Below, in pieces: positions 3,327 through 24,773 of a stretch of DNA of 32,000 nucleotides (position 1 is the stretch's first letter; the number at the start of each line of letters is the position of its first letter). A program made the translations under genes and the position numbers. The stretch lies in the NCBI GenBank assembly GCA_963704755.1, contig OY969938.1, positions 2,400,001-2,432,000 on the forward strand. The letters are read 5' to 3'. Source of the DNA: an uncultured Chloroflexia bacterium (lineage in GTDB: Bacteria; Chloroflexota; Anaerolineae; Anaerolineales; Anaerolineaceae). The notes under the pieces were generated by a model. It made no database searches. It was given only the letters and a program-made list of their open reading frames with translations, and was not told where the DNA came from.

Positions 3327-3360
3327 AACCTCCAGGATATGCAGAATTTTGTATATATTT

Positions 3361-3392
3361 ACAGCAAAGAAAAAGCCTGATCCAGGCTTTTA
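3361..3392 (-). terminator. Short stem-loop plus U-tract downstream of arsR
   Basis: The minus strand reads AGCCTG-GAT-CAGGCT followed by TTTTCTTTG. An A-tract on the other side makes it potentially bidirectional. Confidence 0.4.
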
Positions 3393-3400
3393 TGAACAGA

Positions 3401-4132: not shown

Positions 4133-4693
4133 TTATTCACTTGCTCCTGGTTCACCCTTCTCCCCGGTAAAGGCGTATTCGGTTTCAGCTTTGCATTCAT
4201 TTGACAGCGCCTCCCCGTACGGTTCGTAGCTGCGGTTCAGGCGCACATCCCCCGCCTCGTCCACTAACTGGCGTACCGAGCCAAGCGCATCGCCAATGAA
4301 ATACTCCGTCGAAGCAGCACTTTCTTGTTCCAACCGACAGTTTCCGTAAAGGTAAGTCCGTGCTCCGTCAGCCAATACCTGGGTGAGTGTCCAAAAGGCA
4401 TACTCCACACTGGCGTTCAGGTCCAGGGTGTAGTGGGTGGTCACGCCGTTCTCGAACTGGCGGAGCCGGTCGCCCAGGCCGTTGTAGGCGTAGCCTACCG
4501 TCAGGCCGCTGGCGCTGACCGCGGTCAGTTGGTTGGCGTGGTTGTAGGTATAGGTGTTGACACCATCGTTGAGCAGGTTGCCGTTGCCGTCCCAGGTATA
4601 GCTGACCGCGTTGAGCGTGTTAATACGGTTAGCATCGTCATAGGTGTAGGTATTGACCACTTCCGGCATTTGCGGATCCACCACTTTGGCTTC
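4133..4693 (-). pseudogene. C8: terminal rhs/YD-repeat remnant, truncated at both ends, with no toxin tip
   Basis: YD repeats (YTYDDANRINTLNAVSYTWDGNGN...). The open frame starts right after an in-frame TAA (4694-4696). It ends at ...YAFTGEKGEPGASE*, i.e. inside the conserved AFTGE(N/D)YD core segment, before the DPxG motif. Confidence 0.8.
4441..4690. repeat. ~250-bp near-identical YD-repeat block shared by C8 and C7 (partner at 6662-6912, offset about 2221 bp)
   Basis: Direct comparison of the two stretches shows only scattered mismatches. A more diverged copy lies at 17402-17545 (C2) and 9017-9250 (C6). Confidence 0.8.
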
Positions 4694-4745
4694 TTACATA
4701 TAATAGGTATACAGCACATCATCATTTGATCCAACTATCAGTTGA

Positions 4746-5471
4746 TTACTTCTCATCAATAAATCCCTGCCAATTCTTATACGATGATAAAGATAGATAA
4801 CTTTGCAATTGGCTATCTTCCATAATATGTACAATATCAACGTTCAGCTCATTTGGCATCTTTAAGCTAGATTGAATGATTTTTTCGCATAGATCTTGTC
4901 TAAAAAATGGTGTACGTTCACCATAATGATATAAAATCATTTTTCTTGAAATCCAGACAAGCCCCACATCACATCCCTTTCCTTCCGGATCATTTCTCTG
5001 ATAAAAAAATCCATCCGGTATTCCGATTTCATCAACCACCTCATAAAAACTAATTTGAAAATTAGGGAATACCTTTATATCGTAAAGTTTATCATCGGTA
5101 ATTGTTCGGAAATCGACTGCTAGCATATTCAGAGGTTTTTTGTAAATCGTTTGAATCTCATCACCTGGAATAAATCGATTTACGGAATTGCTCCAAATCT
5201 CGATTGATTTCTCTTTGGTTTCATCAAGATTTAGAAATCCTAAATTTTGGATTTCCTTAATCACATCTTCCTTTGTTGATTTACCAGGAATGAGACCATA
5301 CCAACATGGCGGAGTACATAGTATTTTTTTATTCATCCAACTGTTATCAATAAATTTGGGATCAGTAATATTAGAATTTCCGCTATCTTTTATGCAAGCA
5401 CATAATAGAAATACTAATCCCAAACTTATCAGACCTAAGCTAAGGCAGATTATTGATCTGTTTCTCAACAT
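4746..5471 (-). CDS. Putative lipoprotein immunity protein for the C7 metallopeptidase tip (CxPPCW[YW]G family, paralog of 7087..7803)
   Basis: ATG at 5469-5471 preceded by AAGGAAG. Signal peptide with lipobox LCAC, then the motif CTPPCWYGLIPGKS. It overlaps the toxin 3' end by 32 nt. AT-rich. Confidence 0.6.
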   Translation of the reverse strand: MLRNRSIICLSLGLISLGLVFLLCACIKDSGNSNITDPKFIDNSWMNKKILCTPPCWYGLIPGKSTKEDVIKEIQNLGFLNLDETKEKSIEIWSNSVNRFIPGDEIQTIYKKPLNMLAVDFRTITDDKLYDIKVFPNFQISFYEVVDEIGIPDGFFYQRNDPEGKGCDVGLVWISRKMILYHYGERTPFFRQDLCEKIIQSSLKMPNELNVDIVHIMEDSQLQSYLSLSSYKNWQGFIDEK

Positions 5472-7086
5472 AACTCTTCCTTTTTGGGGTATTTCCAATT
5501 CCGATTACTAATCCGGATTGATAATTAGGATAAACATAATATGCTAAAGATTGAGCCCAATCCTCTGCGCCTGGGTGGGTAAATAAAGGTCCTCCACCTC
5601 CATAAGTTGATGAATATGGGAATTCTTTGCATTCATTAATTGGATTTTGTGGACCAGGGGTTGAAGATGCACATTTGCTTTTTGTGTCGGGTGGAGGTTC
5701 GGGATAAGTGATCCCTCCAGAAGCATCAACTGTCGGTTTATATGGATCCCAATGGCATCCGCCCATACCCAGGCAATCCCAAGTTCCTAACTCTTGCATC
5801 AACCCATAAGATAATTGATTTCCAGTTTGATAATCCCATACGTGTCCAAATTCATGAACGAAAGTATGTTTATAATAATCATCATAACCTGTTTGTAAAT
5901 CGTCAAAAACAATATCCCCCAATAGAGGTTCCCAAATCCCTGGAGGAGACATAGCTCCTAATCCATGAATTTTATTTATCCTCAAACTCTTTACAGCAAC
6001 ATTCATTTTCCCATTCATTTTAGAATTCAAATCAATAGCCGCTTGTTTTATCAGCTTCAGTTCATCAAGTATCCAATTGCCCTTTCTCCATTCACAAGAG
6101 GTTTTCTCACGGGGATTTGGAATATACCCTGTAACCGAAATTGGTCCCCAATCTTTTTTTATGGTTATTCCGAAAGTTAGCAAATCTTTCAAATATTGAT
6201 CAGCTGCACCCGTTTCGCTCTGCTCAATATGCCCAGTTGGATCTTTGTAATTAATTGGGTCCCCGGTGACATATAACCAGGAGTTATAGGACATGGGGTT
6301 TCTAACATTAGTTGGCCAGATATCCTTGCTGACAAACCTTCCGTCTGCCGGCTGGTAGTACCTCGCCCGCATATAGACCAGCCCGGTCAGTGCATCATAA
6401 TCTTCTCCGGTAAAAGCGTAATCTGTGGTGGCGGTTCCTTGGCTCTCCAGCACCTCCCCATACGGCGCATAGCTCTGAGTCAAAGTGACCTCGCCCTCCT
6501 CGTCGGTCATCTGCCGTACACTGCCCAGTGCATCCGGCAGGAAGTAACCGGTCTGGGTCTCACTCACCTGGGCAATGCGATTTACACCATACAGGTAGCT
6601 ATTCGTCCCATCCTGCAGCACCTGGGTCAGCCCGGCGTTCAGGTCCAGGGTGTAGTGGGTGGTCACGCCGTTCTCGAACCGGCTGAGCCGGTCGCCCAGG
6701 CCGTTGTAGGCGTAGCCTGCGGTCAGGCCGCTGGCGCTGACCGCGGTCAGTTGGTTGGCGTGGTTGTAGGTATAGGTGTTGACACCATCGTTGGGCAGGT
6801 TGCCGTTGCCGTCCCAGGTATAGCTGACCGCGTTGAGCGTGTTAATGCGGTTAGCGTCGTCATAGGTGTAGGTATTGACCACTTCCGGCAGGAGCGGGTC
6901 CACTACTTTGGCTTCCTCCAGGCGGTTACCGACCGCGTCATACTGATAATGGAAGTATAGCCCTGAATCGTAATCCGCGGCGGTCAGGCGGTTGAGCGGG
7001 TCGTATGTGTAGTCGATGGTGTGGCTGCCTGGTGGGGGCTCGTCGTACGGAATGCGCGCTGGAAGGACTTTGAGGACATTCTTTTC
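5440..7086 (-). CDS. C7: orphan (5'-truncated) rhs C-terminal module with a HExxH zinc-metallopeptidase toxin tip
   Basis: The frame is open from directly after the TAA of the upstream immunity gene (7087-7089). There is no ATG; the first GTG is at 6903. It carries YD repeats, the core end ...LVYMRARYYQPADGRFVSKD...GDPINYKDPTGH, and a tip from ~6228. HEFGH is encoded at 5842-5856. Confidence 0.8.
   Translation of the reverse strand, partial: EKNVLKVLPARIPYDEPPPGSHTIDYTYDPLNRLTAADYDSGLYFHYQYDAVGNRLEEAKVVDPLLPEVVNTYTYDDANRINTLNAVSYTWDGNGNLPNDGVNTYTYNHANQLTAVSASGLTAGYAYNGLGDRLSRFENGVTTHYTLDLNAGLTQVLQDGTNSYLYGVNRIAQVSETQTGYFLPDALGSVRQMTDEEGEVTLTQSYAPYGEVLESQGTATTDYAFTGEDYDALTGLVYMRARYYQPADGRFVSKDIWPTNVRNPMSYNSWLYVTGDPINYKDPTGHIEQSETGAADQYLKDLLTFGITIKKDWGPISVTGYIPNPREKTSCEWRKGNWILDELKLIKQAAIDLNSKMNGKMNVAVKSLRINKIHGLGAMSPPGIWEPLLGDIVFDDLQTGYDDYYKHTFVHEFGHVWDYQTGNQLSYGLMQELGTWDCLGMGGCHWDPYKPTVDASGGITYPEPPPDTKSKCASSTPGPQNPINECKEFPYSSTYGGGGPLFTHPGAEDWAQSLAYYVYPNYQSGLVIGIGNTPKRKSYVEKQINNLP
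5762..6675. repeat. Copy A of a ~914-bp identical or near-identical block of a tandem duplication (copy B at 8103-9016, offset 2341 bp)
   Basis: Every six-frame ORF translation in this span is identical to its partner (for example 5965..6180 = 8306..8521). Spot-checked nucleotides are identical. Confidence 0.9.
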
Positions 7087-7803
7087 TTATTTCACAGTAT
7101 TAAACCCTTGCCATCTTCTATAAGTTGTCATCGAGTGAAAATCTTCTATTTGACTTTCATCCATAAGATCAATATAACTTACATCCAATCCAGAAGGTAA
7201 TTTATCTCTATATTCATCGACTTTTTCGCAAAGATCTTTTGTAAAGATTGAGGGATTATCACCGAAATAATAGATCACCATTTTTCGAGAAAGCCAAATG
7301 ACAGCTAAGTCACACCCTCTTCCTTCGGGACCCTTTTTCGAAAGGGTAAACCCGTCTGGTTTTCCAATCTTCTCAACAACCTCATTTATGGTGATGTGAT
7401 AATTGGGTGACAGTCTAATATAATTTAAAATGTCCTGGTCTGAAAATTGAAAATATGCAGCCCACATATTCATAGGCTCTTTGTAATAAACCCATACAGC
7501 TTTCCCCGAGACAAGTTCTTCTTTTGTATCGCTCCAATAAGTAATATCCTTCTCGGTGAATTTTTCCGAATCTAAGAAAATTATTGATGGAATAGCATCA
7601 AGTAGTTCATTTATTGATGAATAACCCGGTGAAATCCCATACCAACAAGGAGGTTTACATGGTTTATCCTCTAGCCAACTTTGATCTATAAGGTCAGGGT
7701 CGGATATATTGGTTGGCACACCATTGATGCATGCTGAAATAATAATTAATAAACCTAACCAAGATAACCCAAACCTAATGTAGATTATTAATTTGCTTTT
7801 CAA
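7087..7803 (-). CDS. Putative lipoprotein immunity protein for the C6 metallopeptidase tip (CxPPCW[YW]G family)
   Basis: TTG start at 7803 preceded by AAGGAAG. Lipobox ISAC. Motif CKPPCWYGISPGYS. Clearly homologous to 4746..5471 but much more diverged than the toxin core. It overlaps the toxin 3' end by 29 nt. Confidence 0.6.
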   Translation of the reverse strand: MKSKLIIYIRFGLSWLGLLIIISACINGVPTNISDPDLIDQSWLEDKPCKPPCWYGISPGYSSINELLDAIPSIIFLDSEKFTEKDITYWSDTKEELVSGKAVWVYYKEPMNMWAAYFQFSDQDILNYIRLSPNYHITINEVVEKIGKPDGFTLSKKGPEGRGCDLAVIWLSRKMVIYYFGDNPSIFTKDLCEKVDEYRDKLPSGLDVSYIDLMDESQIEDFHSMTTYRRWQGFNTVK

Positions 7804-9621
7804 TGTATTTCTTCCTTATCGGTGTATTTCCAATTCCTATTACTATTTTTGATTCATAATTGATATAGACATAATATGCCAATGATTGTGACCAATCTTC
7901 GGCACCTGGACCAGTAACAAGTTCACCACCTTTTCCATAAGTTGAAGCATATGGATATTTTTTACAATCCAGGATTGGATTGGTGTTTTGAGGTCCAGGT
8001 GGGGAAATTTCACAACCTGCCAGAGTATCTGGCGGTGGTTCTGGATAAGTAATATTTCCAGAAGCATCAACTGTCGGTTTATATGGATCCCAATGGCACC
8101 CTCCCATACCCAGGCAATCCCAAGTTCCTAACTCTTGCATCAACCCATAAGATAATTGATTTCCAGTTTGATAATCCCATACGTGTCCAAATTCATGAAC
8201 GAAAGTATGTTTATAATAATCATCATAACCTGTTTGTAAATCGTCAAAAACAATATCCCCCAATAGAGGTTCCCAAATCCCTGGAGGAGACATAGCTCCT
8301 AATCCATGAATTTTATTTATCCTCAAACTCTTTACAGCAACATTCATTTTCCCATTCATTTTAGAATTCAAATCAATAGCCGCTTGTTTTATCAGCTTCA
8401 GTTCATCAAGTATCCAATTGCCCTTTCTCCATTCACAAGAGGTTTTCTCACGGGGATTTGGAATATACCCTGTAACCGAAATTGGTCCCCAATCTTTTTT
8501 TATGGTTATTCCGAAAGTTAGCAAATCTTTCAAATATTGATCAGCTGCACCCGTTTCGCTCTGCTCAATATGCCCAGTTGGATCTTTGTAATTAATTGGG
8601 TCCCCGGTGACATATAACCAGGAGTTATAGGACATGGGGTTTCTAACATTAGTTGGCCAGATATCCTTGCTGACAAACCTTCCGTCTGCCGGCTGGTAGT
8701 ACCTCGCCCGCATATAGACCAGCCCGGTCAGTGCATCATAATCTTCTCCGGTAAAAGCGTAATCTGTGGTGGCGGTTCCTTGGCTCTCCAGCACCTCCCC
8801 ATACGGCGCATAGCTCTGAGTCAAAGTGACCTCGCCCTCCTCGTCGGTCATCTGCCGTACACTGCCCAGTGCATCCGGCAGGAAGTAACCGGTCTGGGTC
8901 TCACTCACCTGGGCAATGCGATTTACACCATACAGGTAGCTATTCGTCCCATCCTGCAGCACCTGGGTCAGCCCGGCGTTCAGGTCCAGGGTGTAGTGGG
9001 TGGTCACGCCGTTCTCAAACTGGCTGAGCCGATCACGTTGTACGTGTAACCTACTGTCAAGCCGCTGTTGCTGACCGCGGCCAATTGGTTGGCATGATTG
9101 TAGATGTAGGTGTATACACCATCATTGAGTAAATTACCGTTGTCGTCCCAGGTGTAATTGGCCCCGTTGATTGTGGCGATACGGTTGGCATCGTCGTAAG
9201 TATATATTTTGACCACCTCTGGCATAAGTGGGTTCACCACTTTGGTTTCCTCCAGGCGATTTCCAACCGCATCATACTGGTAATGGAAGTATAGCCCCGA
9301 ATCATAATCTGCAGCGGTCAGACGGTTGAGCGGGTCGTAGCTGTAGTCGATGGTCAGGCTGTTCGGCGGGGTACCTTCCTCACGGGCCGGTGCGGCCTGT
9401 ACCTTGATGGCGATTTCCGGCAGACCGAAACCGGTTATGTCCTCGACTTTTTCGTTCAAAGGTGGGTTGGGGCGTTCGGCCCACATATTGCCGGCACTTT
9501 GCTTAGTCGCTGCTGTAACCGGGTGAGATGCTCCTTCCCAAAACGTTTTTTCTTGTTTCTTATCCTCGCTGGTACTGAAAAGCCCACTCAGCCAATCCAA
9601 TGGACTGCCGGACAAGGCCAA
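7775..9621 (-). pseudogene. C6: rhs C-terminal module with a HExxH metallopeptidase tip, split by a 7-bp deletion
   Basis: ORFs 9004..9621 and 7775..9007 are one reading frame interrupted at ~9036/9037. Relative to C7, the 7 nt 'ccaggcc' (the GLGD codons) are missing. HEFGH is at 8183-8197. There is no ATG at the 5' end; the tracked start is a TTG. Confidence 0.8.
8103..9016. repeat. Copy B of the tandem duplication block (partner at 5762-6675)
   Basis: See copy A. Confidence 0.9.
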
Positions 9622-9695
9622 TAGCGAACCACCGGGGAAAAGGCGGATAAAACCAACTCGCTACGAAAACCGCCCAAAGGTCCTCAAATCCCAGA

Positions 9696-10307
9696 TCATT
9701 TATTTTTAGGTGGCTCACTATCGTCCTGAAGATGAAATGACCATGTCCATTCTGAACCAGCCAGCCGGGTTTGACGAAGAATAATCCCTCGTGGATTGTT
9801 TTCCTTTGACCCTGTCACGATCAAGACAACTTCGTCAGGCATTTCAATCACTTCATTTTCACAATAATCGATGGCTGTAAAAAGCTGTGGATCAATTCCT
9901 CCACCTTCTCGATTGAAAATCGAATCTAGCTCACCAGCTCGCTTCATACCTGTAAAATGCAGCCTTATATATCCACTATCTCTATATTCTATCCACCAGT
10001 TCATCCAATCACTAGCATATTTCTTCCCTTCATCTGGATTGATGTAGATTTGTTTATAAGTCCCATCTTCCTTTATTATCAACAAATCTTCATCATGAAG
10101 ACCATAATTGGCAATCCATTTTCCAATTAAATCGGATTCTTTGAAATTGGTGGGCAACGGAGGGCACAGACTCAACTCAACCGTCTCTGTGGATGAAATA
10201 GCTTGTCGGTTTGTAAGTGAATCTAGGCCCTTACAAGAAGTCGTTGAAACAAGGAACAAAACTGTAAAAATTAATCTTTTTAATAAATGTGCCACTTCAC
10301 ACCCCAT
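9696..10307 (-). CDS. Putative secreted or lipoprotein immunity protein for the C5 tip
   Basis: The ATG at 10305-10307 overlaps the toxin TAA (10307-10309) as TAATG. Signal-peptide-like HLLKRLIFTVLFLVSTTSC. AT-rich. No recognised family. Confidence 0.5.
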   Translation of the reverse strand: MGCEVAHLLKRLIFTVLFLVSTTSCKGLDSLTNRQAISSTETVELSLCPPLPTNFKESDLIGKWIANYGLHDEDLLIIKEDGTYKQIYINPDEGKKYASDWMNWWIEYRDSGYIRLHFTGMKRAGELDSIFNREGGGIDPQLFTAIDYCENEVIEMPDEVVLIVTGSKENNPRGIILRQTRLAGSEWTWSFHLQDDSEPPKNK

Positions 10308-11605
10308 TATTGAATATCTATCAATTGTAGATAAAATGGCCATGGAATTTTCTGTTGTAAACACCCCAAACTATGTTCACTCCATCTGAACGTTTGATAC
10401 ATATTTCCGCCTCCCATCAAGAATCCAGTTTCCCCACGTGTTCTTGGTTCCAGAATGGCCACAATTTCTGGATAACGGAGAAGAATATCTATAACACCCT
10501 CATTTTCCATGTCCTTATGCTCTTGAACAAATTGTTCTAAGGTGTAAGGGTTATTGCGTTCCTCGAAAGGTGGAAAACGCGTTGGTATATGGGTGCCTGA
10601 AGCTAAGTCAGTTCGGTTGATTATCTCGAATTCAACTCTATCAGTTGACGACTTTTCCACCCTGTAATCAAAAGAACCTAAAAAATGTGTTATAGGAAAG
10701 AAAAATTCACCTGTCGAAAAATTAATTCCATCGATTAAGGCCAGAATAAATTCTGGTGGATTAAATTTGCTTTCTTTTGGCGTTGTAATATCTCCAAACT
10801 TATAAAATTCTTTTCGTACAGCATCTAATAAGATAGATCGTGCCAATTCATTTGTAAGTGCGTCATTACGGTTAAATAATACTGTGTCTGGCCCACGTTC
10901 ACAAAGGTAGTCAGCTACTAGATCTATGGCACTCTCCGGCTTAGTCCATCTCGGATCAAGGCAATTAAACCGATTGTTCCATGGATTCTTTTGACTCAAA
11001 GATAATAAAAGTGGACCAGCTTGACTATATAAAGCTTTAGCGGCTATTACTGTATTCTTTGCAGTATCTGCACAACCTATAAAAGGAATGTCACATAAAA
11101 GTGGTGAATAACCAGAAGGGTCCGTTTGATTTAAGACATTATTTTTAACATAAATCCAATTATTAAGTGAGAGAGGGTCTGAGGGATTCCCTGCCCATGT
11201 ATCCTTGCTGACAAACCGCCCGTCCCCCGGCTGGTAGTACCTCGCCCGCATATAGACCAGCCCGGTCAGTGCATCACAATCTTCTCCAGTGAAAGCGTAC
11301 GCCGTAGTGGTGGTTCCTTGGCTCTCCAGCACCTCCCCATACGGCGTATAGCTCTGCGTCAAAGTGACCTCGCCCTCCGCGTCGGTCATCTGCCGTACAC
11401 TGCCCAGTGCATCCGGCAGGAAGTAACCGGTCTGGGTCTCACTCACCTGGGCAATGCGATTTACACCATACAGGTAGCTATTCGTCCCATCCTGCAGCAC
11501 CTGGGTCAGCCCGGCGTTCAGGTCCAGGGTATAGGTCTTCAGTATGTCACTGGTGGTAGAGGCAAGACGGTCTCCCTGCCTGACGTAATTATAGTTGATT
11601 GCTAG
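10307..11605 (-). CDS. C5: orphan rhs C-terminal module with a tip of unknown function (~265 aa)
   Basis: The frame is open from 11605 (TAG at 11606-11608). The A-type core reads ...TYTLDLNAGLTQVLQDGTNSYLYGVNRIAQ...YMRARYYQPGDGRFVSKD...NQTDPSGY. The tip starts at ~11107. No ATG; GTG at 11500. Confidence 0.75.
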   Translation of the reverse strand, partial: LAINYNYVRQGDRLASTTSDILKTYTLDLNAGLTQVLQDGTNSYLYGVNRIAQVSETQTGYFLPDALGSVRQMTDAEGEVTLTQSYTPYGEVLESQGTTTTAYAFTGEDCDALTGLVYMRARYYQPGDGRFVSKDTWAGNPSDPLSLNNWIYVKNNVLNQTDPSGYSPLLCDIPFIGCADTAKNTVIAAKALYSQAGPLLLSLSQKNPWNNRFNCLDPRWTKPESAIDLVADYLCERGPDTVLFNRNDALTNELARSILLDAVRKEFYKFGDITTPKESKFNPPEFILALIDGINFSTGEFFFPITHFLGSFDYRVEKSSTDRVEFEIINRTDLASGTHIPTRFPPFEERNNPYTLEQFVQEHKDMENEGVIDILLRYPEIVAILEPRTRGETGFLMGGGNMYQTFRWSEHSLGCLQQKIPWPFYLQLIDIQ

Positions 11606-11650
11606 CTACTAGCGGCGAATAGTTGTCAACCAATCGGAACTACAACCTCT

Positions 11651-12068
11651 TTATTTTGTTTCTGAATACCCAACCATATAGCGCTGCCCATCAACGACAA
11701 TGCTATTTGCTTCGATGAGCAACGATGCAGACCAAATTTCTAAAACAAAATTAGCACTAATTGATTTTTCAATAAACCTTCCGTAAGAAGAATTTCTGTT
11801 AATCAACATATTTTCTCCTGGTAAATATGAAATTGAAGTTAATTCAGCATATTGCCATGCGGCATTTTGAAAACGATTTTCCCCATCTCCGCCAACAAAG
11901 TAAAACGACGAAACGTTCTCCAAAATAACATAATGCTGAATAATTCGGTCTCGAGTTCTCATTATAAAAGCTAATTGAAATCAAATGTCCGCATAAATCA
12001 ACAGAGAAATCTGTGATTATCCCACCTGTAAATTCGAGAAACGATTTTTCAAAAAAGTCTTTATCCAT
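11651..12068 (-). CDS. Putative immunity protein for the C4 tip (two overlapping ORFs; possible frameshift near 11950)
   Basis: The ATG at 12066-12068 lies 2 nt after the corrected toxin stop (TAG 12071-12073). ORFs 11844..12068 and 11651..11962 overlap in different frames. It could be one ~140-aa gene or a 103-aa gene starting at 11962. Confidence 0.4.
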
Positions 12069-12070
12069 TT

Positions 12071-13350: not shown

Positions 13351-13520
13351 GCCTGTGTTGTTAACGATCCTTCCTTTCGTAGTATCTCTATAGGAAACCC
13401 AAATGGATCATTTCAATACGCTTTGTTGGAAAGCCCAAAGTGCATACTTGATAATCGTGAAAGCGCTAGGTGGTTTTTGGAATTGCATATGTATGAATAA
13501 TTCAAAAGTAAAAGTCGAAA

Positions 13521-14405
13521 TTATCCAACAAATCCCGAATTGATCAAACGAATTGAATAATGTAGGACAGGGAATAGGGCGGTCAAATGGATATTTAATT
13601 GTTCTAAAGAATTGTATCCCCACACAATTATTGGTGAAAATTTCGATCCTATTATTTGAAAAGCAGGAGTGGAATAATTTAAAAACAAAAAAGTCGGTAA
13701 TGGCATTTCTCTAACTATTTTCGATCCTATATTTTGTTGAGCATTTGTGTGATGCTCTTTTAATATAATAGCGAATTCGAATCCTTTAGGCTCTAGGATT
13801 AAGTAATTATGGAATTCAAATTCAACAGTACGATTTGATTTCTTTTTTCTTGCGACTAAGATTTCCCTATCATTTTTATATTCTAAATGGTAATCGTACT
13901 TTGTAAATAAATCACCATACATTGCTATTATAGAACTCTGAAAATCAATATTATCTTCACGATCAATTTCATAGTAATTTACTGATGACGGATTATCCAG
14001 CCATGGAATACCATACTTGATAATTTTTTCTATTGCATCCTTCAGCTTAACTTCAAACTCCTCCTTGTTTCTTGCTTCCCACCAATTTGCCTCAACTTCG
14101 TCTGTTTGAGCAAAATTGTACCTGATCAAGTCGGCTAAGCGACTAAACAGCGGAACTTGATAATCCGGGCTATCATTTGGAACTAATGGAATTCGATAAA
14201 TGTTTACAGTAAACGAATAGGATATAGGTATTTCATTATATTGTCGCCTTTGAAATTGGACCTTTTTTATTACTTTAGCATCAACCAAGGACTCAAATTC
14301 GTACATTACATTACTAATACCTTGTGCATTATGTTCTACATCGTAATAACCGAATTGATTTAATGCCGGATCAACCAAGGAGTGGAATATTTGTAATAAA
14401 GTCAT
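13521..14405 (-). CDS. Putative immunity protein for the C3 nuclease-like tip (294 aa, unknown family)
   Basis: AT-rich ORF 57 nt downstream of the C3 stop, on the same strand. No signal peptide. Confidence 0.45.
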   Translation of the reverse strand: MTLLQIFHSLVDPALNQFGYYDVEHNAQGISNVMYEFESLVDAKVIKKVQFQRRQYNEIPISYSFTVNIYRIPLVPNDSPDYQVPLFSRLADLIRYNFAQTDEVEANWWEARNKEEFEVKLKDAIEKIIKYGIPWLDNPSSVNYYEIDREDNIDFQSSIIAMYGDLFTKYDYHLEYKNDREILVARKKKSNRTVEFEFHNYLILEPKGFEFAIILKEHHTNAQQNIGSKIVREMPLPTFLFLNYSTPAFQIIGSKFSPIIVWGYNSLEQLNIHLTALFPVLHYSIRLINSGFVG

Positions 14406-14462
14406 TATAAAATCGCTCCATTAAATTAATTGTGAAAATTTCAAATTGATGCAATCTGAGGA

Positions 14463-15521
14463 CTAAGGGATTGCTCCAGCAAGGGCAGGAATCACCCACT
14501 CATCGCCGGGTATTGGATCTAACAGCGTCACGGTAATTCCTACAGCAATCAAAATTTGAATGCACTTTTGTGTGTACGCTGGTTGAGGAAGCCCAGAAAT
14601 TTCCTTACTCTCCTTTTTCTCCATCGATTTAGTTTGCTTATTGTATTCGTACATATATTTGGGTACTGGAATTGAGACAGGAATTTTATCTTTACGAACA
14701 CTCTTATATATAATTACTCCTGATGAACTCATCGAGGACATTATAATAGAGCCAGAATAATAAGGATTGACCCCTACAATATCCCACCCATTCACGACCC
14801 ATTTATAATTAGTGCCTTTTCGAAGTGATTTTGGGGTTTTGGGATCTGGCAGTGCATTGTATACGTCAACATACCATTGTATTTCAGCCGCACCTTGAAC
14901 CAATTGCTTTTCGTTCTTAATCTCAAAAGCTTCTTTAGTAGTTTCGTTTACAATATCAATATAACCTATATTTCCAGTCGGTGTGCCAATAAGAATCGGT
15001 ACTCCGTTGTCATCACTTAAGCCTAAATTTGCTTTTGATCCACCACGTACAGGAAATTCTGGTATTACGATTTTTCCCATCCCATAAGTTGTCTCATAAT
15101 GCATTTGGATCATTCTATGTATTAGCTCTCCAGAATATAATCCTGTTGGATCAAAATAATTTATTGGATTCGCTTGGGTATACAGCCAATTATTATAAGA
15201 CATTGGCAGATAATAATTACCTTGCCAAATATCGCTAGATAGGAATCTGCCATTATTGACAGCATAATACCTGGCCCGTAAATAAACCAGCCCGGTCTGT
15301 GGATCGTAATTTTCTCCGGTAAAGGCATAATCTGTCTCGGCTTCGCCATCAGCCGTCAATATTTCTCCATACGGTTCATAGCTACGGTTCAGGCGTACTT
15401 CACCCGCCTCGTCCACCAACTGGCGCACCGATCCAAGCGCGTCGCCAATGAAATACTCCGTCGAAACGGCGCTTTTGGGATGGGTTCGTATTGGTTTGGT
15501 AAAGAGCAAACCGTCATTCAT
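14463..15521 (-). CDS. C3: orphan rhs C-terminal module with a PD-(D/E)xK-like nuclease tip and a hydrophobic C-terminal tail
   Basis: B-type core homology starts only at STEYFIGDALGSVRQLV (about 15460). The core ends at ...NYFDPTGL and the tip starts at ~15137. Motifs are EFPV ... YIDIVNETTKEAFEIKN (E-I-K at 14916-14924). The tail is GLPQPAY plus a hydrophobic stretch. It has its own ATG (15519-15521) in a non-homologous 20-codon leader. Confidence 0.75.
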   Translation of the reverse strand: MNDGLLFTKPIRTHPKSAVSTEYFIGDALGSVRQLVDEAGEVRLNRSYEPYGEILTADGEAETDYAFTGENYDPQTGLVYLRARYYAVNNGRFLSSDIWQGNYYLPMSYNNWLYTQANPINYFDPTGLYSGELIHRMIQMHYETTYGMGKIVIPEFPVRGGSKANLGLSDDNGVPILIGTPTGNIGYIDIVNETTKEAFEIKNEKQLVQGAAEIQWYVDVYNALPDPKTPKSLRKGTNYKWVVNGWDIVGVNPYYSGSIIMSSMSSSGVIIYKSVRKDKIPVSIPVPKYMYEYNKQTKSMEKKESKEISGLPQPAYTQKCIQILIAVGITVTLLDPIPGDEWVIPALAGAIP

Positions 15522-15665
15522 TTTTCTGGATAATGTCGGATCACGATTTAAGTTTTTCTCAAACTGTTCGTGGAGGGGTATTCGGTCATTCTAATAATTG
15601 AATAATCAAGGTTACCCTAAACGAGGGCGAAAGAAGCTGGGTTCACGTCTATTTTTCTTGTCTTT

Positions 15666-16184
15666 TTACTCTTGTTCAAAGGTCGTTAGTTGTTCGATTT
15701 TCTCGAGTATGATTTGTCGCAAATCCTCCAATTCCGGGATCATTTTTCCAGATTCTTGTGCTAACTGAATAACAAGCGTTGGAGGTGATCTATGTCTTGA
15801 ATGTATATGGGTAAATATTCTTTTTTTCAGGTTAGGCTCATGGTTTACTTCACTCTCTTTTTCCCCCAATTCATCGCGGTATGCCATAGTAATTTTTGCG
15901 TCTGTGTCGCTCAATATCTCTAGCAACCTTATGAGGGCGCTCATTTTCTCTCTTAATAGCTCATCTTCCATACCATCGGATGCTACTAAAAATTGTCTTT
16001 GAACTCGATCCATGTTTGGACCAAAATACTCGTTGTCAAAATCTGCTAAGCCTGAAGCATGATTAACAATGTAACTTTTTGCTAGGCTAAAACAGGTTTC
16101 TGCTAATTGTGCCAGGAATCTAAGGAATTCTTGATACGACACATCAATGATTGTTCCATCACCATAAATATCAAATTTAGTCAT
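15666..16184 (-). CDS. Putative immunity protein for the C2 tip (172 aa, unknown family)
   Basis: The ATG lies 32 nt downstream of the C2 stop, with an AGGA-type RBS. Acidic, helical-looking, AT-rich. Confidence 0.45.
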   Translation of the reverse strand: MTKFDIYGDGTIIDVSYQEFLRFLAQLAETCFSLAKSYIVNHASGLADFDNEYFGPNMDRVQRQFLVASDGMEDELLREKMSALIRLLEILSDTDAKITMAYRDELGEKESEVNHEPNLKKRIFTHIHSRHRSPPTLVIQLAQESGKMIPELEDLRQIILEKIEQLTTFEQE

Positions 16185-16216
16185 GTTTTATCCTGTGTAG
16201 TTCACACGGTAGTTAA

Positions 16217-17401
16217 TCATGGAACCCGGGAGAATGCCGCCAGCCGAAGGCCATAGTTTACTAGAAGAATACCCCCAGGAACGGTTACGACGTCATCAAC
16301 AATACCCACCACTGTCGCGTCTTCTACAATTGTGACAACTACAATTGTTCCACCAGCCAATATAAGGACTGTACCACAAGCCGTACCAAAATCAATAGCA
16401 TAAGCAGGTTGATAAGGTTGTGAACTTGGAACCCAATTGCGTGGCCTGAGCAATCGTTTATTTGGAACCAGACCCGCTAGTGGTTTTCCTAAGAGAACGG
16501 GCGCAAGTGCATTGGGCTCAATCCAATAAGCTATGACCCCGTTCCCAACATAGTCGGCGACTAAATCCACAAAAGGAAATGCTAGACTGAGCGGAGTTTT
16601 TCTATACTTGCCTGGCCAATCTGAACCTAGGCCAATATGAAATGGCGTTTGATTCCAATCATAATCACCACCTAACAAATGGTTCCCCAGTAATAGATTG
16701 GCTTGAGCTGCTATAGATAAATCTGCAACATATCCTTGAACCTGAATAGCTCCCGATGCAATTAATAATATGGGTTCAATTTCGTAGACATCGCCTGTCA
16801 GTGAGTTGAACATGTCAGGATGCCTAAAAGGTGTGCCAGGGACCGGATACTCTAATTGTTTGCTGGGATTAAAACCATACATGGCTTCGTAGTAATCTTC
16901 AATTGGCATATGGTACATAGGTTCTGCAAGCCACCAACGCCACATACCACCAGGATCAATGAAATTGACAGGATTTCCTTCAACGTAATTCCAGCGATTT
17001 AGCGATGTGGGATTGTAATAGTCCCCCAGCCAGGAGTTTTTTGAGATAAATCGACCTGTTGAGAGAGATAGGTATCTTGATCGCAAGTAGATCAGCCCGG
17101 TCTGTGGATCATAATTTTCCCCGGTAAAGGCATAATCCGTCTCGGCCTCCCCATCACTGGCCAATACTTCCCCATACGGTTCGTAGCTGCGGTTTAGGCG
17201 TACTTCACCCGCCTCGTCCACCAACTGGCGCACCGAGCCAAGCGCATCGCCAATAAAATACTCCGTCGAGGCGGTGCCCGCTTGTTCCAGCCGGCCGTTT
17301 CCGTAAAGGTAAGTCCGTGCTCCCTCTGCCAATACCTGGGTGAATGTCCAAAAGGCATACTCCACACTGGCGTTTAGATCCAGGGTATATTGAATGGTCA
17401 T
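16217..17401 (-). CDS. C2: orphan rhs C-terminal module with a PD-(D/E)xK-like tip (E-I-E variant) and a hydrophobic tail
   Basis: ATG at 17399-17401. The B-type core ends at ...NFIDPGGM and the tip starts at ~16942. Motifs are LEYPVPG ... PDMFNSLTGDVYEIEP (E-I-E at 16775-16783). The tail is QPYQPAY plus a long hydrophobic stretch. YD-repeat homology continues upstream to ~17545 but contains an in-frame TAA (17486-17488). Confidence 0.75.
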   Translation of the reverse strand: MTIQYTLDLNASVEYAFWTFTQVLAEGARTYLYGNGRLEQAGTASTEYFIGDALGSVRQLVDEAGEVRLNRSYEPYGEVLASDGEAETDYAFTGENYDPQTGLIYLRSRYLSLSTGRFISKNSWLGDYYNPTSLNRWNYVEGNPVNFIDPGGMWRWWLAEPMYHMPIEDYYEAMYGFNPSKQLEYPVPGTPFRHPDMFNSLTGDVYEIEPILLIASGAIQVQGYVADLSIAAQANLLLGNHLLGGDYDWNQTPFHIGLGSDWPGKYRKTPLSLAFPFVDLVADYVGNGVIAYWIEPNALAPVLLGKPLAGLVPNKRLLRPRNWVPSSQPYQPAYAIDFGTACGTVLILAGGTIVVVTIVEDATVVGIVDDVVTVPGGILLVNYGLRLAAFSRVP

Positions 17402-17672
17402 GCCGTTCTCGAATTGGCGGAGCCGGTCGCCCAGGCCGTTGTAGGCGTAGCCTGCGGTCAGGCCGCTGCCGCTGACCGCGGTCAGTTAGTTGGCCTGATT
17501 GTAAGGGTAGGAATACACACCATCGCTCAGGAGATTCCTATTTTAGGCCAAGGTAAAGTCCACATCGCTGTATCACGAAGGGAAGATAATCACTTAATCG
17601 GTATTGCCTTATCATCGATGAAACTGTTTTCTCGATTGCTTAATTCGAAGAATTTATTAATGGCAATAATAT

Positions 17673-18101
17673 CTAATGATCCCTACTCTGCAAATCCTCG
17701 GCCGATAATTTTCGTAGAATTTGTATGTGGCAATCAATAGAATCTCTTTCGAAATTTGCTCTTGCCATATCACGATTTATTCGATATGGATTGTTAGCCA
17801 TAATGGTATCAAATAGGTCGCTATGAATATATATTGTTATTGCAACTACCTTTATAGGTATTTCTTGGCTAAGTAAGCAAGTAAGAATTTCTTCCGCCAA
17901 TAACTTAATATTAAGCTCGCCTTTTATGTTTCTTGATGATATTGGGTTATTTTCGCTATGGAACCAAGAAATATTGACTTTATCATTTCCTGCCACCTGC
18001 ATTGTAAAAGTCAGATTGATTATAAATAAAGGTAAATTTTGCTCTTCAAATAGCGAAATGATTTTCTGCAACAATTCAGTGATTTTCAAATTGATTGGCA
18101 T
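17673..18101 (-). CDS. Putative immunity protein for the C1 tip (142 aa, unknown family)
   Basis: The ATG lies 33 nt downstream of the C1 stop and is preceded by AGGAG. AT-rich. Confidence 0.5.
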   Translation of the reverse strand: MPINLKITELLQKIISLFEEQNLPLFIINLTFTMQVAGNDKVNISWFHSENNPISSRNIKGELNIKLLAEEILTCLLSQEIPIKVVAITIYIHSDLFDTIMANNPYRINRDMARANFERDSIDCHIQILRKLSAEDLQSRDH

Positions 18102-18134
18102 TTTTTCTCCTGGAGCGTTAAGAAGGGTACTAGA

Positions 18135-19547
18135 CTACGGCGTTACAAAAACTAGTGGGGGAAAAAGACAAAATTCTGTAATTTTATAACCAAGATAAAT
18201 TATTATAGGTACTGACAAGTAAATTGTCACTTCGGGATTAGGCAATTCTACAGAGTAAGCAGGTTGAGGCGAGAGTCCATTTTTCGGTACCCATCCCTGT
18301 CTTTCATTTCTGGTCGATGTTTCCATTGGCCGTGTAAGATGAATAGGATCAAGCACGGGAACATTAACTGGTTTTGGCCGCCTATATTTCCACCATACAA
18401 TAACACCTGGCATAGGTTGACCAGCATATAAGTCAAATTGACCTGTATCATCATTTCCCAGAAAAACCTCGGAAGGGAAAGAATAACCTTCTACCCAAAA
18501 GGGTGGAAATATATTCCAGTCATATATCATACCAACTGGATTAAATCCTGTTAGCAACAAATTTTCATGAGCATCTTCTAATTCAATTAATCGTGGCTGA
18601 AGCTCTAATAGAGCTTCATTTTGATCAGCCCATGGTTTTATTTCCCAAACTTCTCCTGAAAGAGAATCTAACAGGTCAACTTTAGTTCCTAAAGGCGGAA
18701 TCGGATATTCAGCATGAATTTGATCTATACACCCCATCATTGCAATTTCTTGAACACGGACTGAAACATTTTGAGATTGGAATCTATTCCTTGAAGAATT
18801 TAGAAGTGATTCACCAGGCCCCCAAAAGTAATGGCCTGAGGGGTCTAATCTCGATAATGGATTATTTGCTGTATAAACCCACAATGAAACCGTTTGAGGC
18901 AATAATTCTTTAATGGGCCATATATCCTTGCTAACAAACCTCCCATCCGTCGAGTCGTAGTACCTCGCCCGCAAATAAACCAGCCCGGTCAACGAATCAT
19001 AATCTTCTCCGGTAAAAGCGTAAACTGTGGACGCGGTTCCTACGCTTTCAAGCACCTCTCCATAGGGCGTGTAGCTCTGCGTCAAAGTGACCTCGCCCTC
19101 CTCGTCGGTCATCTGCCTCACCGACCCTAGTGTGTCCGTCAGGAAGTAACCGGAATGAGTTTCACTCACCTGGGCAATGCGGTTTACACCATAAACGTAG
19201 GTATTTGTCCCATCCTGAAGTACCTGGGTCAGCCCGGCGTTCAGGTCCAGGGTATAGGTCTTCAGTATGTCACTGGTGGTAGAGGCCAAGCAGTCTCCCT
19301 GGCCGTTATAGCTATAGCTGCTAATCACGGACCCCTGATTATTAATTGATATCAGCCGGTTGGCGTGGTCGTATGTGTAGGCATAGGTCCCATCGTTCAG
19401 CAAATTGTCGTTATCATCCCACTGGTATTCGGTCTCATTGACATTGGTCAGCCGGTTGGCAGCGTCGTAGCTATAGCTGGTCGTCCCGGCGGCAGTCGTT
19501 TCGCTCAGGCGGTTACCGACTGCATCGATCGTGATCGTCATGGACAA
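18135..19547 (-). CDS. C1: rhs C-terminal module truncated at its 5' end by an IS630 remnant; PD-(D/E)xK-like nuclease tip with a hydrophobic tail
   Basis: YD repeats plus an A-type core ending ...NNPLSRLDPSGH, with the tip from ~18830. Motifs are AEYPIPP ... VDLLDSLSGEVWEIKP (E-I-K at 18636-18644). The tail is LSPQPAY plus a hydrophobic stretch. The 5' end abuts IS630 sequence at ~19525-19540. Confidence 0.8.
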   Translation of the reverse strand: MSMTITIDAVGNRLSETTAAGTTSYSYDAANRLTNVNETEYQWDDNDNLLNDGTYAYTYDHANRLISINNQGSVISSYSYNGQGDCLASTTSDILKTYTLDLNAGLTQVLQDGTNTYVYGVNRIAQVSETHSGYFLTDTLGSVRQMTDEEGEVTLTQSYTPYGEVLESVGTASTVYAFTGEDYDSLTGLVYLRARYYDSTDGRFVSKDIWPIKELLPQTVSLWVYTANNPLSRLDPSGHYFWGPGESLLNSSRNRFQSQNVSVRVQEIAMMGCIDQIHAEYPIPPLGTKVDLLDSLSGEVWEIKPWADQNEALLELQPRLIELEDAHENLLLTGFNPVGMIYDWNIFPPFWVEGYSFPSEVFLGNDDTGQFDLYAGQPMPGVIVWWKYRRPKPVNVPVLDPIHLTRPMETSTRNERQGWVPKNGLSPQPAYSVELPNPEVTIYLSVPIIIYLGYKITEFCLFPPLVFVTP

Positions 19548-19857
19548 CTTGAATACGCACTCGCCGATCTCTTTTTATGAAACTCACGAGCAAGACGAAG
19601 CTCGACGGCGCATTGATCGCTTCGAATTCCATTTCACACCGAAGCATGGTAGTTGGCTGGATATGGCTGAAATCGAGTTGGAGGTCTTGATCCACCAGTG
19701 CCTTTCTCGACGTATTTCCGATAAGGCCGTTTTAGAATCTGAAGTGGCTGCCTGGCAAAACAACCGCAATGCCAAGCTAGTCAAAATCAATTGGCGCTTC
19801 ACAACGGCTGATGCCCGTTTCAAGCCAAAAAACCTCTATCCCGAGATTCACCTTTGA
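19531..19857 (+). mobile_element. IS630-family transposase, C-terminal ~108 aa only (remnant)
   Basis: IVMDNLNTHS...FEFHFTPKHGSWLDMAEIELEVL...QCLSRRI matches the DDE C-terminal part of IS630/Tc1-like transposases. The N-terminal ~2/3 is absent and is replaced by antisense RHS sequence. Confidence 0.75.
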
Positions 19858-19871
19858 CAGACCACATTAGT

Positions 19872-20240
19872 TCACCAAACCCATAACTCATTTACTTTAT
19901 CCCTATATGTGGCGGCTTCAGCTGTAACATAGCTTTCTGGTGTTAACGAGATGAAAAGTGAATATTTGTTTCCAAACATGATTACTATCGATTTTCCTTC
20001 CTCGATAGTGGCCGAGACTATTATCTGACCAATACACTCGAGAAGTAGATTACAAAAATCTTTGGATTCGCGTTTATGTGATATTCCATTAACAAGGATT
20101 TCAGGGTCCGTAATTGCCGTTAAGACGGGACCATCGAATCGAAATTGAATATAATCTCTAACGAATTCTATCGAACTCAACTCGTCATTTATTAATTCAC
20201 TAAACGGATTTTCTTTTGGTTTATTAACTACCCCATTCAT
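19872..20240 (-). CDS. Putative immunity protein for the C0 tip (122 aa)
   Basis: The ATG at 20238-20240 lies 9 nt after the corrected toxin stop (TAA 20250-20252). It is preceded by AAGGAG. AT-rich. Confidence 0.55.
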   Translation of the reverse strand: MNGVVNKPKENPFSELINDELSSIEFVRDYIQFRFDGPVLTAITDPEILVNGISHKRESKDFCNLLLECIGQIIVSATIEEGKSIVIMFGNKYSLFISLTPESYVTAEAATYRDKVNELWVW

Positions 20241-20249
20241 TGGATCTCC

Positions 20250-21297
20250 TTATTCTGCACGGAAAGGCAAATGCCACCAAGAATCTGCTTTGTTGATAGT
20301 TTTTCCTGTGTAGGGATTAATTGACTGTCCGGATTTATTATAATAAGAAGCATATCCGTTAGGATAACCACGCCAGGAGAGGGTGGTTGAGGATTTGTCG
20401 GATCCATAATTCGGACACCATATGCGCTGTCACTGAGTCCATTTCCTCCATTTCCTCCTTCATATCTTAAATCCTTTTCCAGATTTAACTGGGCTAGGTC
20501 CTGTTGCGCCATTTGGTATAATAATTGAATCTTCGCCCGGTGATACAATAAAATCCGGTGAGTTTGAAGACTTAATCGTTGGCGGCTGAGGTATGGCATC
20601 GTTATTGGCTGTTGAGGTGGTTTTCGGTAGTGAATAGTAGCTTCCAAACTCAAGTGCTGAACTTCCTCCTGTGATCCATAAGCCAGCTGAGAATAAATCG
20701 TTTTCAAAAACTTGTTGAGAAGCTTCCGGATTATTGATCAATTCTGCTTGAGGAGTATCTGCAGTAAGAAATGATGTTATTAAACCGGTGGCTACAACAG
20801 TTGTTATTATGCCCGCATTATCTACAATAAATGTTCCCACTGCAATACAAACTGCCAATAATGGGCCAACACAATGCCCCGTTGGATCGTTATAACGAAC
20901 GGGATTGTTGTTTGCATAGGAATAACGATCCCAATTCTGATCGCCTTGAATTTCGGGTATGATAGAATCAGGTTGAGTGAAACGCCCTAGCGCGCTGTCA
21001 TACCACCTCGCTCCATAATAATACAATCCGATCGAGTCTTCCTCTGCCCGGTGAACTGGTAATCGGTGGGCAAAGTTCCGCTGGTATACCGTGTCTCACC
21101 CTGACGGAGCACCCCAGAGCGTTTTTTGCGAGGGGGCAGGGCTTATACAACTGTTTGCTGTTCAGGCTGCCATCCGCGTTGGCCACCACACTGGTCGAGC
21201 CCAGGTGATCGTCCAGCAGGAAACAAATTTTTTCCTGCAATGGCAGTTGTATCCCCATTTGGCTACCTGCTATCCGTTGGCCCTCCAGAACTGCCAC
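20250..21297 (-). pseudogene. C0: rhs core end of a third lineage plus a toxin tip, broken by about four frameshifts
   Basis: Pieces read in three frames: LLDDHLGSTSVVANADGSLNSKQLYKP / GETRYTSGTLPTDYQFTGQR / EDSIGLYYYGARWYDSALGRFTQPDSIIP...NNPVRYNDPTGH. The tip from ~20873 has a hydrophobic segment. The tail is recovered in two further frames down to TAA 20250-20252. The breaks are near 21122-21127 (T6), ~21040, ~20465 and ~20365. Confidence 0.7.
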
Positions 21298-21321
21298 AGA
21301 AATTCTTCACAAATTTCATCA

Positions 21322-22297
21322 TCAATCGGGCCATATATCCCTCGGAGTTTGAAAAAAAAATGATTCTCCCTCATTGAGATATTGGCTATAGAATTCGTCT
21401 AAAGTTAAGCCAGTTGCAGTTTCTATTGGCAAGATATAGGGTTTGGAAACCGGATCATATTGTTCAGTTAATGATTCTAATGGAACAGTTTCTGTAGATG
21501 CCCTAAGATCAATCTCGACATCTATAGGACTTTCTGTTCTATAAAATGAAGGGCAAATTGTATATGTTTCTTTCCGATCTGTATTTCCTCCAGAAATAAT
21601 GAGGAACCCTTGTGAATCGTAGAACAACCATAATGTATAACCAACAATATCTTGCCCGGCACTTGTAGTCTGTAACCATATCCTGCCAGGTTTTCCATAA
21701 TGTTTCAGAATTTCTTCAGGAGAATAGTTTTTCCATAGTGGTAAGAACTGTTCCAAATTTTCATTCGAGAAGGTCCCGGCTTTAATACTGTAAATATAAC
21801 GGTCTTTCTCCTCGAACTCGATCCAATTAATAACTGTTTTCTTCTGAAGAAACAGAATCAAAATGCACCTCATGATGAATTTGATCCGTTGACCGAATCG
21901 TAGAAGTTGGTTCTATGCCCATATGTTTTAAAAGAGGCAAAGCCTCGTCCCAAGAGGTCTTTCCTGGCTCCATCCCCCACCAGCAGGGAAGCTTACAATC
22001 TTGGCTATCTGTAAACAGATCCAAAATGTACTTATCCCTCTGCTGAACTGTTAGAGTAGGTTCTAATGTCACTGTCACTTGGGGTATTTTATTCTCCGTG
22101 ATGATCCTTCCAATTTCCACAGTAGGTGTTTTTGATTGCTCTGTCGTACTGATAGGAGAGACCTCAACAGGGACTTTACTCTGTGTAGTTATTGGTAAAG
22201 GTAAATTTGATCAGGGATTACAACCCATAAGAGATAAACAGAACACTAGAATCAACAGAAGAGCACGAAAAAAAGAAAGATTTGAAGAGAATGTCAA
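21322..22297 (-). pseudogene. Lipoprotein with a CxLPCWWG domain (distant relative of the two metallopeptidase immunity proteins); disrupted, with no cognate toxin upstream
   Basis: Signal peptide plus lipobox FFRALLLILVFCLSLMGC starting at TTG 22295-22297. In-frame TGA at 22211-22213. Motif CKLPCWWGMEPGKTS. Frameshift in an A/T run at ~21837-21840 joins ORFs 21827..22120 and 21322..21873. Confidence 0.5.
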
Positions 22298-22300
22298 ACG

Positions 22301-24404: not shown

Positions 24405-24409
24405 AATTT

Positions 24410-24517: not shown

Positions 24518-24773
24518 TCTAGATTTACTCCTGTGATGTTTTTTCTAAATACGCATGTCTGAAGGCAACAGATAGGTCACTTCAAGGTGCATGGCATGTA
24601 CTAATACCAACCCATTGGCGCTTTGTCTGCGGGTGCATTCACGAAAGTCAAAGAGGTATGCCCTCTGGTCCGATCCAGCTCTGCCATTTTAGATCAAGTT
24701 ACAAAGGAAAGATATATACGAAAGTGTGGAAAAAGTGGGGTAGCAGGCAGTCCAGAAATGAAGGAAACTACTT

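Follow-up and report, generated by a model that had tools for sequence, protein, structure and literature searches.

Nine orphan rhs cassettes with putative toxin/immunity pairs and no head gene in a 32-kb window of a Chloroflexota contig

Orphan rhs modules, in which a truncated rhs gene with a C-terminal toxin part (rhs-CT) is followed by an immunity gene (rhsI), have been described in PMC3150448 (Poole 2011), PMC3967940 (Koskiniemi 2014) and PMC5727410. Salmonella strains carry up to 11 rhs orphans (PMC7043789), and Snodgrassella alvi carries 18 Rhs-family genes in three loci (PMC5727410); the C-terminal displacement model is that of Jackson 2009, as cited in PMC5727410. Here we analysed a window of 32,000 nt (the whole stretch of DNA presented above, positions 2,400,001 to 2,432,000 of contig OY969938.1 from an uncultured Chloroflexia bacterium). 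The source is a metagenome-derived contig of 4,871,623 bp, and the window contains nine rhs fragments, C0 to C8. The locus is an orphan rhs-CT/immunity architecture of known type, minus the head gene, and the array is slowly decaying.

In the cassettes, as in the enterobacterial orphans, a 5′-truncated core runs up to a DPxG boundary and is followed by a variable tip and, downstream, by an immunity gene. As there, translation start signals are missing from the fragments, homology between cores permits recombination, and the tips recur on full-length proteins elsewhere. Unlike the enterobacterial orphans, the array has no heading main rhs gene in the window, bears insertion sequence (IS) scars at its upstream end and internally, and has the boundary DP[STG]G[HYLMN] rather than strict DPxGL. 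The related Chloroflexota parents, of 3000-4300 amino acids (aa), also appear to be Sec-type surface proteins, not PAAR/VgrG-linked effectors of a type VI secretion system (T6SS).

Rhs loci in S. alvi resemble the array in their long series of truncated Rhs genes accompanied by immunity genes, their pseudogenised members, their toxin-less terminal fragments (compare C8) and the mobile-element genes within them (PMC5727410). On the other hand, each S. alvi locus is headed by a complete PAAR-Rhs gene beside a T6SS, and many orphans are transcribed there, with immunity genes that matter for fitness (PMC5727410). Orphan immunity arrays (Vibrio cholerae T6SS, PMC5361080; gut Bacteroidales, PMC12247911) are also similar in that immunity outlives the toxin: one immunity-like gene of the array, imm(-1), lacks a toxin, and imm0 is found on two other contigs with only a 128-nt toxin remnant. 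Protection against non-self toxins is a plausible shared role. Unlike those arrays, this one retains most toxin tips and has no recombinase linked to it in the window.

The module anatomy of the nine-cassette array is confirmed and is far beyond chance. All nine fragments lie on the minus strand and span 4136-21222 in an array of about 18 kb, and a listing of stop-to-stop open reading frames (ORFs) recovers 9/9 modules on that strand. With the TIGR03696 profile (Rhs_assc_core; curated cutoff 32.5 bits), C0-C7 match at E values of 9e-17 to 4e-20 and 58-72 bits, and each of them contains exactly one DP[STG]G[HMLNY] motif. The nine minus-strand modules, with an RHS core in C0-C7, that an earlier note on this DNA had described were thereby reproduced together with their coordinates. 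C8, called a remnant in that note, is one: neither a TIGR03696 match nor a DP[STG]G motif was found in it. YD repeats (PF05593 or TIGR01643) were detected in C1, C6, C7 and C8.

Beyond DPxG, C0-C7 continue into 137-266 residues of AT-rich, unrelated tip, and downstream of each follows a small ORF with a Shine-Dalgarno sequence and an ATG. The spacing from tip to small ORF ranges from a 57-nt gap (C3) to a 32-nt overlap (C7), as had been noted for all eight. GC content is 52.7% in the cores, 40.7% in the tips, 35.7% in the small ORFs and 49-50% in the flanks. At least three core lineages are present, namely A-type (C1, C5, C6, C7), B-type (C2, C3, C4, C8) and the divergent C0, and the array is multi-lineage as claimed earlier. 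The ratio of nonsynonymous to synonymous substitution rates (dN/dS) between cassette cores is 0.10-0.50, and core divergence therefore occurred as translated sequence. The earlier ceiling of about 240 core residues was too low, since the Rhs homology of C6 and C7 exceeds it (Table 1).

No main rhs gene lies within 9.7 kb upstream of the array (22.3-32.0 kb) or within 4.1 kb downstream. The closest genomes are Chloroflexota metagenome-assembled genomes, two of which (L002, L003) carry Rhs genes of >3800 aa. When two full-length relatives were searched against the whole window by tblastn, Rhs-like sequence was found only at 4145-21222 on the minus strand. All of it aligns to residues ~3296-3559 of 3853 in the L002 protein, just before DPxG, and the fragment starts correspond to parent residues 3296-3448. 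The shell and N-terminal regions of either >3800-aa parent gave no match in any frame of the whole window. Because no other parent region matches and the flanking genes are unrelated, a parent in cis is absent and cannot be restored by frame correction; a complete rhs ORF after frame correction was considered and rejected, no shell sequence existing in any frame. The earlier note had likewise found no shell, N-terminal or secretion domain and no complete rhs ORF, and both statements hold, tblastn returning only ~260 residues that precede DPxG.

The full-length relatives begin with signal peptides or lipoboxes, and Big_1/invasin, CarboxypepD_reg, MG4 and DUF6531 domains precede their YD shell. 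With these features, the Chloroflexota parents look like Sec-exported surface Rhs proteins. WapA of Bacillus subtilis is a Sec-exported, wall-associated toxin of Rhs type, intact at ~2300 aa, in a bacterium that lacks a T6SS. Compared with WapA, the Chloroflexota parents have extra Big_1, CarboxypepD_reg and MG4 domains. The array shares with the WapA/yxi region of B. subtilis the YxiG-like family PF24711, to which imm4 belongs.

Related contigs show both headed and headless arrangements. On L003, a 3800-aa parent is followed by at least three orphans in canonical order, and on L047 a 3284-aa parent lies upstream of orphans that include a C6/C7-type cassette (P0091). The metagenome contig L018 (1-13109) contains nothing but five Rhs orphan cassettes in one orientation, two of them near-duplicates with in-frame stops; L024 has three cassettes only, and the three of L044 are accompanied by integrases and transposases. 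Because L018 is made of five cassettes, with in-frame stops among them, parent-less decaying cassette stretches recur in the lineage. The locus is more ordinary than first thought, and the description of the array as unusually long does not survive comparison with the Salmonella (PMC7043789) and S. alvi (PMC5727410) counts given above and with the all-cassette L018. Genes for tyrosine recombinases (phage-integrase family) lie in or beside orphan arrays on L044 (5129-7511) and L046 (12206-12874), and no integrase or tyrosine recombinase was found in the window. Contig L045 (Logan), to which a 46-aa cluster member led, has no relation to the window.

The C1-C7 tips recur as C-termini of Rhs proteins of 2100-4100 aa in core-plus-tip alignments. 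C6 and C7 match the C-termini of P0225 (3331 aa), P0286, P0278, P0238 and P0234, and C1-C3 match those of P0271 (4098 aa), P0230 and P0240, the C1 tip matching all three. C1 aligns to parent residues 3323-3552, and C2 is 49% identical to the C-terminus of P0271 over 434 aa. The C4 tip matches the C-terminus of P0218 (2910 aa). C5 matches that of P0265 (3704 aa) with 44% identity, and is 68% identical over its full length to the orphan P0072. The C0 tip matched no full-length Rhs C-terminus in the same alignments.

For the families of C5 and C6/C7, other genomes keep the toxin-immunity linkage. P0072 (contig L046) is followed by an ORF 61% identical to imm5 (E 2e-91), and P0091 by an ORF related to both imm6 and imm7. 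The tips and their neighbouring ORFs are putative toxin/immunity pairs, in which the tips would be toxic and the ORFs would neutralise them.

Sequence searches found no Pfam, NCBIfam or PDB relatives of the tips. An H-E-x-x-H...D pattern is invariant in the C6/C7 tip family, which could represent a metallopeptidase to judge from this motif; the structure model of the HExxH tip (AlphaFold, pLDDT 65) gave no Foldseek match below E 0.9. The C1-C3 tips form one divergent family with an invariant E...D...E-I, followed by K or E. They end in a conserved QPAY and a hydrophobic, transmembrane-like tail (18138-18300, 16220-16400, 14466-14600), which is unusual for a nuclease-like toxin domain.

Because imm6, imm7 and imm(-1) have lipoprotein signals and imm5 has a signal-peptide-like N-terminus, the toxins of these systems probably act outside the cytoplasm. 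For the HExxH and C5 toxins, the immunity signal peptides would imply action on the cell envelope. The signal peptide of imm(-1), LLLILVFCLSLMGC, is in frame at ~22283-22225 and is followed by an in-frame TGA; with this and one frameshift joined, the protein is 25% identical to imm6 over 197 aa (pairwise E 4.5e-7).

The imm0 protein has an identical copy on two metagenome contigs, L049 and L050. On these, imm0 and the last ~128 nt of its toxin gene (window 20368-19857, 512 nt) are present at 98.8% identity (L049 1671-2181, L050 2526-3036). Both contigs (ENA metagenome) are otherwise unrelated to the window, lack an Rhs core and resemble poly-immunity clusters, with an IS256-type fragment nearby. 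A 98.8%-identical 512-nt segment on otherwise unrelated contigs suggests that the imm0 module moved recently without its toxin.

The upstream boundary of the array is a degenerate IS256-family element. Its transposase is broken into three ORFs (23535-23221, 23202-22909, 22955-22326), which match PF00872 at profile positions 6-97, 110-196 and 197-377, and its ends carry imperfect inverted repeats of 29 nt (22286-22314 and 23621-23649). The 8-mers on either side, AGATTTGA and CCCTGAAT, differ, and there is no target duplication. The start-codon region of imm(-1) is replaced by the inverted-repeat end of this element, and the lipoprotein signal peptide of the gene sets in where the repeat stops. 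Because imm(-1), devoid of a toxin, is cut at the IS end without target duplication, we infer that an IS-associated deletion or inversion removed the upstream part of the locus, including the main rhs gene.

Another scar is internal. The Rhs homology of C1 begins at ~19532, where an IS630-type transposase remnant begins on the opposite strand with no spacer, and homology between the window and L049 stops exactly at 19857, the other end of the remnant. The remnant abutting C1 would mark a deletion scar. Because the Rhs homology starts where the truncated IS630-type gene starts, C1 may be what is left of a longer rhs gene, possibly a full-length one. At its downstream end, the array stops with C8, cut inside the core after AFTGE. 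The earlier proposal that the array became detached from its expression gene fits these IS scars.

Lesions are spread over the array. Among the toxin fragments, C0 has at least three frame changes (tblastn pieces at 21222-21139, 21100-21044 and 21029-20877), C2 a nonsense codon (TAA at 17488-17486, from CAA), C4 a frameshift in its tip between 12454 and 12292, and C6 a 7-nt deletion at ~9036 relative to C7. Among the immunity genes, imm(-1) has the nonsense codon and frameshift described above, and imm4 has a frameshift, PF24711 covering only profile positions 33-129 and the N-terminal part being in a different frame. No homopolymer run longer than 5 nt occurs in the frame-change zones. L001, a short-read contig that stems from a different data set, matches the window at 100% identity over 22828-25832 (3005 nt), two of the IS256 breaks included. 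The lesions are real, not sequencing error, because one is a 7-nt deletion, long homopolymers are missing and L001 matches the two IS256 breaks. Intact are 6/8 tips and 7/9 immunity genes; damaged are 4/9 toxin fragments and both array ends, and with 2/9 immunity genes broken as well, the earlier term 'silent bank', which would imply maintained function, was not borne out.

Recombination has left its own marks. A tract of 914 nt is perfectly identical between C7 (5762-6675) and C6 (8103-9016), running from the end of the core across DPxG through two-thirds of the tip, with flanks only 68-85% identical. Its pattern argues for a recent gene conversion. Another tract, of 151 nt, is identical between C5 and both C6 and C7, and C8 is a mosaic whose 5′ part is 95.7% identical to C7 and whose 3′ part is B-type.

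Immunity genes have AGGAG-type sites 5-10 nt before their ATG, while no Shine-Dalgarno sequence was found at proper spacing before the first possible starts of the toxin fragments. A promoter scan with an E. coli-type consensus, which may not suit Chloroflexota, gave 52 sigma-70-like matches vs 45.5 ± 6.6 expected, and none of the promoter-like sites on the coding strand is conserved across the cores. One site, at 18230-18202, has 11/12 matches and lies inside a tip just 5′ of the immunity gene. Within the reach of that consensus, the count is at chance level and the cassettes look like promoter-less orphans, whose toxin fragments have no ribosome-binding site.

In C6, the Rhs homology is preceded by about 100 open codons in the same frame (9660-9361), to which no match was found in homologues or full-length parents. 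The idea that they encode a conserved N-terminal domain, as part of a short Rhs protein standing alone, was rejected, because the stretch is not conserved in homologues. An apparent fixed start boundary shared by short homologues was likewise set aside as being largely due to query start and score ranking.

Table 1 Features of the array and its boundaries in the window (all positions in window coordinates)
Feature	Position	Strand	Description
IS256-family (Mutator-type) element	22286-23649	-	1364 bp; degenerate; upstream boundary of array
imm(-1)	22283-21325	-	immunity-like lipoprotein gene; tenth remnant; no toxin upstream
C0	stop-to-stop 21306-20240	-	divergent-lineage rhs fragment; ~105 core residues; three frames; TIGR03696 E 9.4e-17; DPTGH 20888-20874; frameshifted tip
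imm0	20240-19872	-	122 aa; AAGGAG 5′ of ATG; ATG overlaps C0 stop
IS630-type DDE transposase remnant	19531-19857	+	C-terminal part only; PF13358 DDE_3, profile 82-143 of 146
C1	19574-18138	-	A-type; ~230 core residues; TIGR03696 E 3.4e-18 and YD repeats; DPSGH 18845-18831; intact 231-aa tip
imm1	18101-17676	-	142 aa; AGGAG ribosome-binding site
C2	17563-16220	-	B-type; DPGGM 16957-16943; intact 241-aa tip
imm2	16184-15669	-	172 aa
C3	15488-14466 (stop-to-stop from 15590)	-	B-type; ~115 core residues; DPTGL 15152-15138; intact 224-aa tip
imm3	14405-13524	-	294 aa; DUF4304 (PF14137, E 2e-6)
C4	13340-12074 (stop-to-stop from 13407, two frames)	-	B-type; DPSGN 12930-12916
imm4	12068-11654	-	YxiG-like immunity-type gene, frameshifted; PF24711 E 9e-22
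C5	11593-10310 (stop-to-stop from 11605)	-	A-type; DPSGY 11122-11108; intact 266-aa tip
imm5	10307-9699	-	signal-peptide-like N-terminus
C6	9354-7778 (stop-to-stop from 9660, two frames)	-	A-type; ~260 core residues; DPTGH 8584-8570; intact 264-aa HExxH tip
imm6	7803-7090	-	238 aa; lipoprotein-type; lipobox IISAC
C7	7023-5443 (stop-to-stop from 7086)	-	A-type; ~260 core residues; DPTGH 6243-6229; intact 262-aa HExxH tip
imm7	5498-4749	-	250 aa; lipoprotein-type; 39% identical to imm6
C8	4693-4136	-	mosaic rhs fragment; ends after AFTGE; no DPxG, tip or immunity gene

One flank of the array holds genes for ArsR, an ArsP permease and an MFS transporter; on the other, the IS256 element is followed by genes for an alpha/beta hydrolase, LuxR, PtsI, HPr, a histidine phosphatase, an amidohydrolase and YdjC. 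Those for PtsI, the histidine phosphatase, HPr, the amidohydrolase and YdjC form a phosphotransferase-system (PTS)/sugar-processing cluster at 26835-31637. Between the LuxR-type gene and ptsI, ~900 nt of 62% GC (25958-26835) hold a 199-aa plus-strand ORF without a Pfam match and several short minus-strand ORFs, and may be a broken gene. No tRNA genes or Rfam families were found across the window.

We favour the reading, on balance a probable one, that the array is a fragment of a C-terminal-displacement rhs locus whose head gene was detached, and that it slowly decays with immunity genes still usable. A giant Sec-exported Rhs gene would acquire at its 3′ end, by recombination, a new tip with its immunity gene, and each such event would push the previous tip/immunity pair downstream together with a core stub of at most 260 codons. 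The array would then have been severed from its head gene, with the IS256-family element upstream and the cut inside C8 downstream, and the internal scar would have joined the truncated IS630-type gene to C1. The head gene absent from the window was probably lost at these IS scars. Because there is no start linked to a ribosome-binding site, no shell and no signal peptide, toxins could presumably be neither made nor exported from this locus. The immunity genes, with ribosome-binding sites of their own, may protect against neighbours deploying these toxins, and the cassettes would stay substrates for homologous recombination.

Several points weigh against this reading. A full-length rhs gene may lie elsewhere in the 4.87-Mb genome, beyond the window studied. 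With a 2611-aa Chloroflexota Rhs query, no protein of the window's contig was among the best 120 of 3776 relatives, and no long protein among 1.84 billion cluster representatives exceeds ~63% core identity to C7; both searches are indirect and can miss a parent. Homologues were listed only up to ~1.75-fold the length of the query (501 aa with a query of 286 aa, 377 aa with one of 218 aa), which is too short for such small queries to bring up a giant parent. The missing target duplication of an old, degenerate IS is a weak sign of IS-mediated deletion, and the 914-nt tract, being 100% identical, could in principle be an assembly polishing artefact. Sequential displacement from one parent would not account for the interleaving of A- and B-type cores or for the very divergent C0, and more than one parent or internal rearrangement is therefore needed. 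The E. coli-type consensus of the promoter scan counts here as well.

The array might instead be an active silent-cassette bank, from which tips and immunity pairs are copied by core gene conversion into a distant rhs gene, as in pilS/pilE. In favour of this, the 914-nt and 151-nt tracts show recent conversion between cores, most tips are intact, and orphan-to-main recombination has been demonstrated in Salmonella (PMC3967940). However, the sole conversion observed is from cassette to cassette, the two indirect searches just given produced no parent, and lesions in C0, C2, C4, C6, C8 and two immunity genes suggest relaxed selection, making such a bank possible but unlikely. It is doubtful, too, that a detached, trans-acting library diversifies a full-length rhs gene elsewhere by gene conversion and that the 914-nt tract is its footprint.

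A further reading is that internal promoters drive the cassettes where they lie, as intracellular toxin-antitoxin-like pairs comparable to those reported for the main and orphan Rhs-CT of Salmonella Typhimurium. It would find support in the Salmonella internal promoters upstream of the DPxGL-coding region (PMC7043789) and in the few strong promoter-like sites within tips just 5′ of immunity genes, such as that at 18230-18202. Yet promoter-like sites are not enriched, none on the coding strand is shared by the cores, the tips are not preceded by a start codon with a Shine-Dalgarno sequence, and the three lipoprotein immunities and the imm5 signal place the targets outside the cytoplasm, which misfits an intracellular role; we consider it very unlikely. 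Hardly credible is an assembly artefact, in which a long-read repeat region was collapsed or chimeric, the frameshifts are errors and the missing parent is a mis-join. The contig is metagenome-derived, frame breaks are numerous, and L001 ends inside the IS256 element, but L001 is also identical throughout its overlap, IS256 breaks included; the breaks lie outside long homopolymers, one being the 7-nt deletion, and housekeeping genes stand on both flanks. Collapse is unlikely moreover because cores differ by 15-30% and tips are unrelated.

Under the displacement reading, the array does not overturn current understanding. It extends the orphan-cassette logic of Rhs toxins from Enterobacteria and bee-gut Neisseriaceae to Chloroflexota, where the weapon would be not a T6SS effector but a giant surface protein exported by Sec. 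If the trans-acting library were true instead, toxin switching would be independent of the cis displacement arrangement. The analysis flags candidate toxin/immunity families: the HExxH tip with lipoprotein immunity, the C5 family, and the tip that combines a PD-(D/E)xK-like motif with a hydrophobic tail. The locus also offers an example of what may remain after a weapon is lost, namely translatable-looking antidote genes and stubs that recombine with one another.

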